From Planctomycetota bacterium (GTDB taxonomy: Bacteria; Planctomycetota; UBA1135), in assembly GCA_045047305.1 (NCBI GenBank), contig JASFYO010000028.1:1-24131 (forward strand): a stretch of 24,131 nt of DNA, given 5' to 3'. Numbering within the stretch: position 1 is the stretch's first letter; every line of letters starts with the position of its first letter. Below the pieces are notes generated by a model. It was not told the origin of the DNA and ran no database searches. It saw only the letters and a list, made by a program, of their open reading frames with translations. Shown in pieces: positions 22,494-24,131 of the stretch. The position numbers were made by a program, and so were the translations under genes.

Positions 22494-22585
22494 TGGCGGA
22501 GAGAGAGGGATTTGAACCCTCGGAGCTGACAAATCAGCTCAACAGCTTAGCAAGCTGCCGCATTCGGCCACTCTGCCATCTCTCC
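22494..22585 (-). tRNA. tRNA-Ser(GCT)
   Basis: Acceptor GGAGAGA/TCTCTCC-G-CCA, anticodon arm GCAGC-TT-GCT-AA-GCTGT, long variable arm, T-loop GTTCAAATC. 92 nt. Confidence 0.96.
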
Positions 22586-22904: not shown

Positions 22905-22992
22905 TGGCGGAGAGGGTGGGATTTGAACCCACGGTCCGGTGAAGGACGCTGGTTTTCAAAACCAGTCCATTCGGCCACTCTGGCACCTCTCC
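22905..22992 (-). tRNA. tRNA-Ser(TGA)
   Basis: Acceptor GGAGAGG/CCTCTCC-G-CCA, anticodon arm CTGGT-TT-TGA-AA-ACCAG, long variable arm, GTTCAAATC. 88 nt. Confidence 0.96.
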
Positions 22993-23012
22993 GCGCGGAA
23001 TCAAACGAGGGC

Positions 23013-23426
23013 TTAGCCGCCCGTCGAAGCTTGATTCCAGACTTTTTCGGTAATGTAAATCGGGGCTGACCCGCGTAAGGATAACGCGATGGCATCGGAA
23101 GGGCGACAGTCGATTCCGAAGACCTCGCCGTTACGCTCCACTCGCAGCTCGGCAAAGTAGGTGCCCTGTTCCAGCTCGTGGATGACCGTCTCCTTAATGC
23201 GGCCCGCCAGCTTCTCGATGAGAGAGTGAGTGAGCTGGTGGGTCATCGGCCGCGACGGATATTCGCGCTTCAAGCACTGGGTGATTTCCACCGCAGCATT
23301 GCGTCCAATCACCATCGTGAGGGAGCGCTTGTTGGGGCCAACACCTTCCTCGCTGAGCTGCATGTACTGCTGCTCATGGCCGTCCACCAGAATCAGGCGG
23401 GTAACGCGGGCTTCGGTGCGTTCCAC
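23013..23426 (-). CDS. Bifunctional nuclease domain protein (DUF151)
   Basis: VIGRNAA, RPMTHQL, GTYFAEL, IDCRPSDAIALSLR. The GTG at 23426 avoids overlap with ogt. Confidence 0.92.
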   Translation of the reverse strand: MERTEARVTRLILVDGHEQQYMQLSEEGVGPNKRSLTMVIGRNAAVEITQCLKREYPSRPMTHQLTHSLIEKLAGRIKETVIHELEQGTYFAELRVERNGEVFGIDCRPSDAIALSLRGSAPIYITEKVWNQASTGG

Positions 23427-23449
23427 GCCGAATAGGTTATCCTGGCGGC
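23427..23449. promoter_or_regulatory. Overlapping divergent -10 elements (bidirectional leaderless promoter)
   Basis: Plus strand TATCCT-6 nt-ATG (ogt). Minus strand TAACCT-7 nt-GTG (DUF151). Confidence 0.55.
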
Positions 23450-23974
23450 ATGGCAGACGTCTACGCAATGGTGGTTCCAACCGAAATTGTTGGCAAGGTG
23501 CGCTTCACCTTCATGCCCGACGGTTCTCTAGCGACGATTTCTCTGCGTTCCTGCGCAGTGCTCGGTTCTTCCAATGGCGAGTCAGGGCCACGTCCAAAGC
23601 AAGCGCCAAGTGTGGCTGCAGTAGCAAGGTGGCTACGCGATTACATGGCTGGAAACGCAGGTGATTTTCCTGGCGTTTGGGCGAACCCAGGGAAAACTGA
23701 ATTTGCGCAACGGGTTTACGCCGCTGTTGCCAAGCTGCCCGCTGGTAAAACCATGAGTTATGGCGAGGTCGCAGTTGCCGTGGGATCGCCTGGTGCGAGT
23801 CGTGCTGTTGGTACTGCCATGGGCAGGAATCCAATCCCACTGGTGGTGCCATGACACCGTGTTTTGGCGGCCAGCGGTCAGCTGGGCGGATTTACTGGTG
23901 GCACGGACTTGAAGATGGCCTTGCTCGCCGCAGAAGAAAGCGAGTTTAGTTTTGCAGAAGCTGGCCAGCGTTGA
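23450..23974 (+). CDS. ogt: O6-alkylguanine-DNA alkyltransferase (Ogt/MGMT) with an in-frame TGA (probable selenocysteine, residue 135) at the catalytic position; 174 aa with readthrough
   Basis: TEFAQRVY...GKTMSYGEVA...SRAVGTAMGRNPIPLVVP-[TGA]-HRVLAASGQLGGFTGGTDLKMALLAAEE, next stop at 23972-23974. Confidence 0.88.
23868..23888 (+). promoter_or_regulatory. Putative bacterial SECIS element
   Basis: CG-G-CCAGC [GGTCA] GCTGG-G-CG hairpin. The loop starts 22 nt after the TGA and begins with GGU. Confidence 0.65.
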
Positions 23975-24131
23975 AAAACACCAGCAGCATTGCGGCTTGA
24001 TAGACCAAAGTTCGTTGGCGTCGGATGATCTCGGCTTGGCCGCCAGGTAGGAAGCTCAGGATTAGTGCGATTCCAATTCCGACGCTGACGAGGACCATTC
24101 TCCCTATTGGTTCGGCAAAATTGCCGAACCA
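23946..24131 (-). CDS. C-terminal fragment of a probable membrane protein, truncated by the window edge
   Basis: Open frame ...MVLVSVGIGIALILSFLPGGQAEIIRRQRTLVYQAAMLLVFFNAGQLLQN* with two hydrophobic stretches. Convergent 29-nt overlap with ogt. Confidence 0.55.
   Translation of the reverse strand, partial: WFGNFAEPIGRMVLVSVGIGIALILSFLPGGQAEIIRRQRTLVYQAAMLLVFFNAGQLLQN

Follow-up and report, generated by a model that had tools for sequence, protein, structure and literature searches.

The window analysed here, a stretch of 24,131 nucleotides, is contig C28 of a 2.83-Mb planctomycetotal assembly (87.7% complete), and it carries near its end a plus-strand ogt/MGMT coding sequence (23450..23974) that contains an in-frame TGA codon (23852..23854) at the position equivalent to Cys145 of human O6-alkylguanine-DNA alkyltransferase (hAGT). 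Translated with table 11, the frame that opens with the ATG at 23450 stops at this TGA (position 23854) and gives a 134-amino-acid product, whereas reading through it gives U135, our predicted selenocysteine (Sec), then 39 codons up to a TGA stop at 23972-23974, and a protein of 174 residues in total. The frame described in an earlier, sequence-only reading of this DNA was thereby confirmed. Between 23849 and 23863 the plus strand reads CCA TGA CAC CGT GTT, and the active site is VVP-U-HRV. The divergent neighbour of ogt is a minus-strand gene of the bifunctional-nuclease family (BFN, PF02577; 23013..23480), assigned by profile match and with a putative start. On the other side lies a convergent minus-strand HupE/UreJ-family gene (PF13795; 23946..24131, 3′ end cut by the contig end), which overlaps the last 29 nt of ogt and was identified by tblastn to a full copy on contig C13. 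Just upstream of the BFN-ogt pair, two tRNA-Ser genes (anticodons gct and tga) are located on the minus strand at 22494-22585 and 22905-22992; the seryl link of these tRNAs to Sec synthesis is probably a coincidence. The assembly also contains a second BFN-ogt-hupE locus (C13:1-1134, 77% identical in DNA to window positions 22924-24017), where ogt has the same neighbours, the same TGA and the hairpin described below, and groups in the tree with the gene of another species. Two other contig-end pairs in the assembly overlap at 75-81% identity, and the stated contamination is 0.41%; C13 probably comes from a sister population, and the assembly probably mixes such contigs with its own.

With the TGA site read as Cys, the read-through protein matched PF01035 with 109.4 bits (cut-off 27, E 7.6e-32) and TIGR00589 with 102.4 bits (cut-off 46.4), the PF01035 match spanning the TGA and covering profile positions 1-80 of 81 (residues 84-163). 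The P-(C/U)-H-R nucleophile motif of Ogt and the active-site Tyr, Arg finger, Asn, Lys and Glu are all present. These matches and aligned residues bear out the proposal that the TGA falls on the alkyl-accepting Cys and that the motifs downstream of it are intact. In hAGT numbering, which we infer through the match to solved AGTs, with residue roles taken from published AGT work, Tyr104, Arg118 (the arginine finger, in RAVG) and Asn127 (23759..23830, plus strand) correspond to Tyr114, Arg128 and Asn137 and are invariant in 33/33 aligned rows. Frame and alignment place the residues that are made only by read-through at 23855..23935 (plus strand): His136, Arg137, Gly147-Phe148, Lys155 and Glu162, with His146, Arg147, Tyr158, Lys165 and Glu172 as their hAGT equivalents. 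Phe148 (23891..23893, plus strand), the counterpart of hAGT Tyr158 and of Tyr139 in Mycobacterium tuberculosis OGT, lines up with residue 139 in 4wxc, a Y139F structure and the top sequence match among solved structures. In its fold, its helix-turn-helix and residues Tyr104, Arg118, Asn127, His136, Arg137, Lys155 and Glu162, the protein resembles Cys-type Ogt, Ada-C and human AGT/MGMT, but it has Sec for Cys and Phe for the usual Tyr158. An AlphaFold2 model of the read-through protein with Cys at the site had a mean pLDDT of 85.5 (49.7-70.0 for the other four models); its top Foldseek matches were solved OGT/AGT structures (TM ~0.7), including 4wx9 (E 1e-13, TM 0.73), consistent with a two-domain AGT fold.

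Since TGA ends 153 of the 580 frames of at least 500 codons in the whole assembly, it is a normal stop and the code is standard. Genome-wide reassignment of UGA (codes 4/25) is excluded by this count and by the cca anticodon of tRNA-Trp. The six ATGA overlaps that the sequence-only reading had cited against a global code change all exist, five of them on the minus strand. Contigs from three sequencing runs cover the TGA codon, with 13, 76 and 98 differences from the window over ~1.2 kb; the 40 differences listed (136 further rows lie beyond those 40) leave 23852-23854 untouched.

To place the TGA codon among its relatives, we searched 49 genomes of the family. Matches were obtained in 46, and an orthologue whose active site is complete was present in 40 (42 genes); left out of the count were three genomes with no match, one in which the gene is cut before the site and five with only a longer, probably Ada-like paralogue. 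All 42 genes are syntenic, adjoining BFN and/or HupE genes (BFN in 40/42), and the nine nearest named Ogt records bear the title Planctomycetota, so that the organism probably belongs to this phylum. The catalytic codon is TGA in 20 of the 42 orthologues (19 genomes) and TGC or TGT in the other 22 (21 genomes); TGG was found in 0/22 of the latter. By genus, TGA occurs in 10/10 copies from nine genomes of the window's own genus (g1), 3/3 of g4, 5/5 of g15 and 2/3 of g17. The TGA is therefore not a singleton: the same codon is TGA in all eight other genomes of the genus, whose proteins are 54-79% identical to that of the window, which makes chance or assembly error unlikely. Across the ten genus copies, pN/pS is 0.25 over the 27 codons after the TGA and 0.28 before it, values that point to purifying selection downstream of the TGA, so that both the alternation of TGA with Cys codons and continued selection on the distal part of the protein are seen in relatives. 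In one TGA copy (L055, G050:C466), the otherwise near-invariant Gly before Phe is replaced by Glu (LGEFTG); an error of assembly or a damaged allele may account for this.

A SECIS-like stem-loop lies inside the coding sequence directly after the TGA (23855..23900, plus strand). Its lower stem is formed by 23855-23862 and 23894-23900 and its upper stem by 23868-23875 and 23881-23888, capped by the apical loop GGUCA (23876-23880), 21 nt after the UGA. The minimum free energy (MFE) is -21.7 kcal/mol for the 50 nt from the UGA (z -2.55; 6/200 shuffles as good), and the hairpin fits the published consensus model of bacterial SECIS elements (PMC13188914, Fig. 2A legend) in at least 99.5% of sampled structures. 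When codons were shuffled synonymously, 18/1000 shuffles were as good as the window hairpin, and 70-90/1000 for the weakest genus. In the ten genus copies, 78 of the 80 cells of the 8-bp upper stem are paired and two pairs have changed on both sides; 6/500 shuffles paired as well, a significance inflated by relatedness. Moreover, pS is 0.22 in the upper stem compared with 0.70 upstream and 0.89 downstream. Membership of the in-frame bacterial SECIS class was taken to mean a hairpin that follows the UGA by 16-37 nt and whose first loop positions contain G, and like members of this class the Ogt hairpin combines a 21-nt spacing with a 5-nt loop starting GG, an upper stem of at least 4 bp and an energy below -7.5. 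It also shares its G-U loop and spacing with the SelD SECIS of the same family. The loop lies 21, 24, 24 and 27 nt from the U of the UGA in the family genera, offsets consistent with separate origins or with remodelling. An Rfam search at the locus returned two chance matches and no SECIS family.

The published model, applied to the 50-nt MFE structures, was fitted by 19/20 TGA and 1/22 Cys copies in the family, by 92 of the 111 TGA genes listed from the wide scan described below as against 16/113 metagenome Cys genes, and by 25/30 SelD controls; with 63 nt the corresponding figures were 16/20, 1/22, 93/111, 11/113 and 26/30. The model is loose, since 19 of the 111 TGA genes listed fail it and 8 of 18 Nitrospirota Cys genes pass it at 50 nt. 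We preferred it to our first hairpin rule, which separated the family perfectly (20/20 TGA, 0/22 Cys) but had been set post hoc and had poor recall elsewhere (43/111 in the wide scan, 20/30 SelD).

A search of the assembly for the Sec machinery recovered all four components: selA (397.5 bits), tRNA-Sec (75.6 bits, cut-off 47, anticodon tca), selB (a 645-codon frame on C10) and selD, which itself contains an in-frame TGA. The sel genes are on contigs C29 and C10 and not on the ogt contig, and the bin may include sister-population contigs; selA and selD were also found in 8/8 other genomes of the genus. Among the 19 TGA-carrying family genomes, one (G055, 85% complete) had neither selA nor selD detected, which is likely to reflect incomplete assembly, as is the missing selA in 7 of 100 genomes from the wide scan. 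The sel genes, the tRNA-Sec, the recurrence of the TGA and the SECIS-like hairpin thus support the selenoprotein (PUHRV) reading first proposed from the sequence alone, and we estimate the probability that the gene encodes an intact, functional selenoprotein O6-alkylguanine-DNA alkyltransferase at about 95%.

A rough read-through screen of the assembly yielded 22 candidates, 12 of which were tested against Pfam. Nine of these have a domain typical of selenoproteins at or across the TGA (two MsrA-type, three thioredoxin-like, and one each of AhpC-like, deiodinase-like, DUF3179 and CMD/AhpD), and the remainder are two FG-GAP/ASPIC proteins and one case of two separate genes; as the screen missed SelD, the selenoprotein list for the assembly is incomplete. 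The assembly thus probably has nine or more additional selenoprotein genes of known types, the thioredoxin-like ones with UxxC, on C56, C33, C73, C23, C82, C55 and C3 (loci L282-L289). Separately, we observed large FG-GAP/ASPIC-UnbV genes in which an in-frame TGA lies within a D-L-U-S-x-F-W-R motif and is accompanied by a SECIS-like hairpin (C63:569 and 3738 on the minus strand, C17:160-597; loci L281 and L465-L494, identified by motif and hairpin), one of which has a thioredoxin-like tail as judged by motif. Every match listed, from 44/49 family genomes, has one TGA, and the SECIS model is fitted by 26 of the 31 sites checked, which include one spurious frame. None of the NCBIfam selenoprotein models fits these genes, and neither 'FG-GAP' nor 'ASPIC' occurs in the available text of a 2026 selenoprotein review.

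Alkyltransferase-like (ATL) proteins have a PWHR motif in which Trp or another non-nucleophile replaces Cys, and a hairpin after a stop codon can in principle aid read-through. Leaky or programmed read-through might place Trp or Cys at the UGA and yield an ATL-like damage binder or a low-level Cys enzyme, and ATL structures are indeed related to the Ogt model, though as the weakest of its true structural matches. We regard this as very improbable, since the 22 non-TGA family orthologues all have TGC or TGT and never TGG, the hairpin resembles the same-family SelD SECIS in its G-U loop and spacing, and TGA tracks selA across phyla while serving as a normal stop genome-wide. Membership of the ATL group itself was rejected on the lack of TGG in the 22 orthologues and on the full N-terminal domain of the Ogt, ATL matches covering only ~82 columns. 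The UGA could also act as a selenium-dependent switch, the 134-aa product persisting as a stable damage-binding protein when selenium is scarce. The fragment does keep the helix-turn-helix and Arg118, but by the structural model it would lack residues 136-171, which form the active-site loop and the last helix, and would therefore probably not be stably folded; there is, moreover, no sign of selection on a short form, and a switch seems very improbable.

To determine how widespread Sec-Ogt genes are, we carried out a single motif scan of species-representative genomes, with a pattern that required the active-site Asn and His-Arg, and obtained at least 119 loci. Of the 119 listed, 112 are Ogt genes with TGA at the Cys codon and seven are chance matches. 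The 112 TGA-Ogt genes listed are labelled Bacillota (34), Planctomycetota (19), Nitrospirota (16), Chloroflexota (10), Nitrospinota (8), Thermodesulfobacteriota (5), Myxococcota (3), Fusobacteriota (3), Sumerlaeota (2), Tectimicrobiota (1) and Pseudomonadota (1), with 10 unlabelled; these 11 phylum labels derive from record titles, and at least two look wrong, as the proteins cluster with other phyla. Among the wide-scan genomes tested, selA was present in 93/100 (47/50 and 46/50) compared with 1/14 control genomes and about one in four bacteria (PMC9312934), in a test set that omits 10 loci duplicating family genes and two within-genome repeats. These observations also bear on whether the gene is a pseudogene, created by a nonsense mutation or an assembly error and giving a 134-aa fragment. 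Such a product is what the public protein collection holds for this Ogt, in a look-up that is blind to records bearing U. However, TGA in 9/9 genus genomes, the purifying selection after it, the near confinement of the SECIS to TGA copies in the family, and at least 112 such genes, with selA in nearly all the genomes tested, make a pseudogene very unlikely.

Sec and Cys forms alternate at several depths. The family Ogt tree, with the site masked, requires three Cys/Sec changes and the family RpoB tree three to four, with a single Sec clade rejected (p-AU 0.0005); a 44-row tree of three lineages requires seven to nine changes and again rejects a single Sec clade (p-AU 4e-8), the Sec forms branching from within the Cys relatives of their respective lineages. 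The trees thus indicate that Sec-Ogt forms are not one clade and that Cys and Sec have switched repeatedly, with gain and loss indistinguishable in direction. In the family, 44/49 genomes have selA and 46/49 have selD, so that many genomes able to decode Sec retain Cys. Among the Nitrospirota (loci L435-L464, including L436, L442, L447 and L449), close relatives show a mixture of Cys and TGA versions, and one Cys gene is 94% identical in its core to a Sec cluster. The Nitrospirota Cys genes that retain a SECIS-like hairpin (8/18) are possibly recent Sec-to-Cys reversions, an event that is rare in bacteria according to the text available of a review.

The starkest difference seen between Sec and Cys forms in an alignment of 111 Sec genes listed and 113 metagenome Cys controls with the same pattern is at the Tyr158 position, which is Phe in 108, Tyr in two and Trp in one of the Sec genes and Tyr in 90 and Phe in 23 of the controls. 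When the Sec genes were clustered at 70% linkage, 37 of 40 clusters had Phe, and for 14 of these 37 the nearest Cys gene compared has Tyr. Similarly, in the order of Gudongella, the 29 closest Cys genes (from 121 genomes) comprise 27 with Tyr and two with Phe, while the Sec form has Phe. On the other hand, Phe is common in Cys relatives within the family (19/22) and among the closest Nitrospirota genes (16/18), implying that Phe often came first. The pairing of Sec with Phe was also tested by independent pairs on a tree of 311 rows and 91 columns, where the three pairs available (median p 1) gave no power. An RNA cause of the link through the SECIS was rejected, as the SECIS survives in-silico introduction of a Tyr codon (99 versus 99 of 118). 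The association is clear at the level of sequence but may reflect ancestry. None of the 20 family Sec copies has relaxed Asn127, His136 or Glu162. Longer, probably Ada-like paralogues with Cys and Tyr (PCHR...GYGGG) are present in six family genomes (L108-L113 in G043, G001, G042, G004, G024 and G049), five of which have a Sec + Phe Ogt, and are possibly a selenium-independent back-up; no Cys-type Ogt/Ada domain was found in the window's 87.7% complete assembly.

Sec-Ogt has been known as a predicted selenoprotein family since 2005, when it was described in Carboxydothermus hydrogenoformans and called unique to one species and very recent (PMC1287953). Surveys added two sequences from Olavius symbionts (PMC1976440) and one Sec form against 2,879 Cys homologues in the GOS data (PMC2398784), algal examples have been reported (PMC7539508), and the family is listed in reviews of 2022 and 2026, as far as the available text of these sources goes. 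The sequence-only reading spoke of a rare predicted bacterial selenoprotein; prediction and listing stand, but with at least 112 genes rarity does not. The present gene resembles that of C. hydrogenoformans (CHY0809, compared by description) in that a stand-alone Ogt has UGA for its active-site Cys, followed directly by a stem-loop, in a genome with the full Sec machinery, and differs in that its TGA is fixed across a genus and recurs in at least 112 genes under 11 phylum labels. What is added here is this breadth, the repeated Cys/Sec switching and the Sec-Phe pairing; in the literature searched, mostly the main text of open-access papers, we found neither a survey of Sec-Ogt breadth nor a mention of the Phe link, nor any biochemical study of a natural Sec-Ogt. 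An engineered counterpart, human AGT-U145, reportedly the work of Haruna et al., has Sec at the same position as U135; it is artificial, with Sec inserted at UAG without a SECIS into a human active-site loop and survival as the read-out. According to the available text, it protects Escherichia coli lacking ada and ogt from MNNG whereas the S145 form does not, and the N137A substitution inactivates the C145 enzyme but not U145 (PMC4150793). The earlier statement that biochemical characterisation is lacking thus holds, within the literature searched, for natural Sec-Ogt but not for Sec at this site.

In the mechanism that we propose, SelB with Sec-tRNA would insert Sec135 by binding the hairpin whose GGUCA cap lies 21 nt after the UGA, machinery and hairpin being present in the assembly. 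The 174-aa Ogt would bind DNA through its helix-turn-helix and flip O6-alkylguanine with Arg118, as described for AGTs, and the selenolate, ionised without help from neighbouring residues, would take the alkyl group in one substitution that leaves the protein spent. Single-turnover transfer by U135 is expected by analogy, as Cys AGTs transfer the alkyl group once and are then spent (PMC10814553). Without selenium, the 134-aa fragment, lacking His136-Glu162, could not repair. Sec and Cys have been swapped several times, almost only in proteins with Phe rather than Tyr at position 148. In simulation, Tyr158 takes part in a water chain with Cys145, His146 and Lys165 (PMC9515978), and in M. tuberculosis OGT, where Y139 corresponds to hAGT Y158, Y139F lowers the affinity for alkylated DNA with, in principle, little catalytic effect (PMC5751216). 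As Sec makes activating residues dispensable in engineered hAGT, we tentatively suggest, at rather less than even odds, that a pre-ionised selenolate makes up for the Tyr hydroxyl missing from the active-site water network. Against this stand the small catalytic effect expected in principle of Tyr-to-Phe and the unrelaxed Asn127, His136 and Glu162 of the family Sec copies. The main rival to this compensation step alone, with odds approaching even, is that Sec is inserted but near-neutral, that UGA and a cheap hairpin drift in and out, and that the Phe link is subfamily ancestry. Near-neutrality accords with Cys in 21 of 40 family genomes despite the prevalence of selA and selD, with sister genomes that differ (two TGA and one Cys in g17) and with Phe predating or accompanying Cys in two lineages, but it sits less well with the scarcity of Sec + Tyr (2 of 111 listed) when Tyr predominates in controls, with the 14 of 37 Phe-Sec clusters whose nearest Cys relative among those compared bears Tyr, and with the order of Gudongella.

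Returning to compensation by the selenolate, a broader and more doubtful extension is that Sec-Ogt is a distinct, convergent active-site type (Sec with Phe at Tyr158) in about ten phyla, in which the selenolate replaces the Tyr/water network and changes rate, pH range or lesion preference, and which makes alkylation repair selenium-limited. Because alkyl transfer consists of one nucleophilic substitution and involves no redox cycle, Cys/Sec sister pairs together with the Phe/Tyr link offer a clean test of a non-redox benefit of Sec, and the presence of Sec-Ogt in records whose titles name strains (Gudongella sp., where it is stored in the public collection as 121 aa, and Propionigenium maris DSM 9537) makes it testable. 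For 20 years Sec-Ogt was a rarity in selenoprotein tables, and these natural pairs bring the question of Sec beyond redox within reach of experiment. If our reading holds, Sec-Ogt is common and stored truncated in public collections; if the broader extension is true, selection in nature would here have favoured Sec solely for its action as a carbon nucleophile, in a reaction that is stoichiometric and non-redox, and the Sec-Ogt organisms, in some of which no Cys back-up was found, would be limited by selenium for DNA-alkylation repair.
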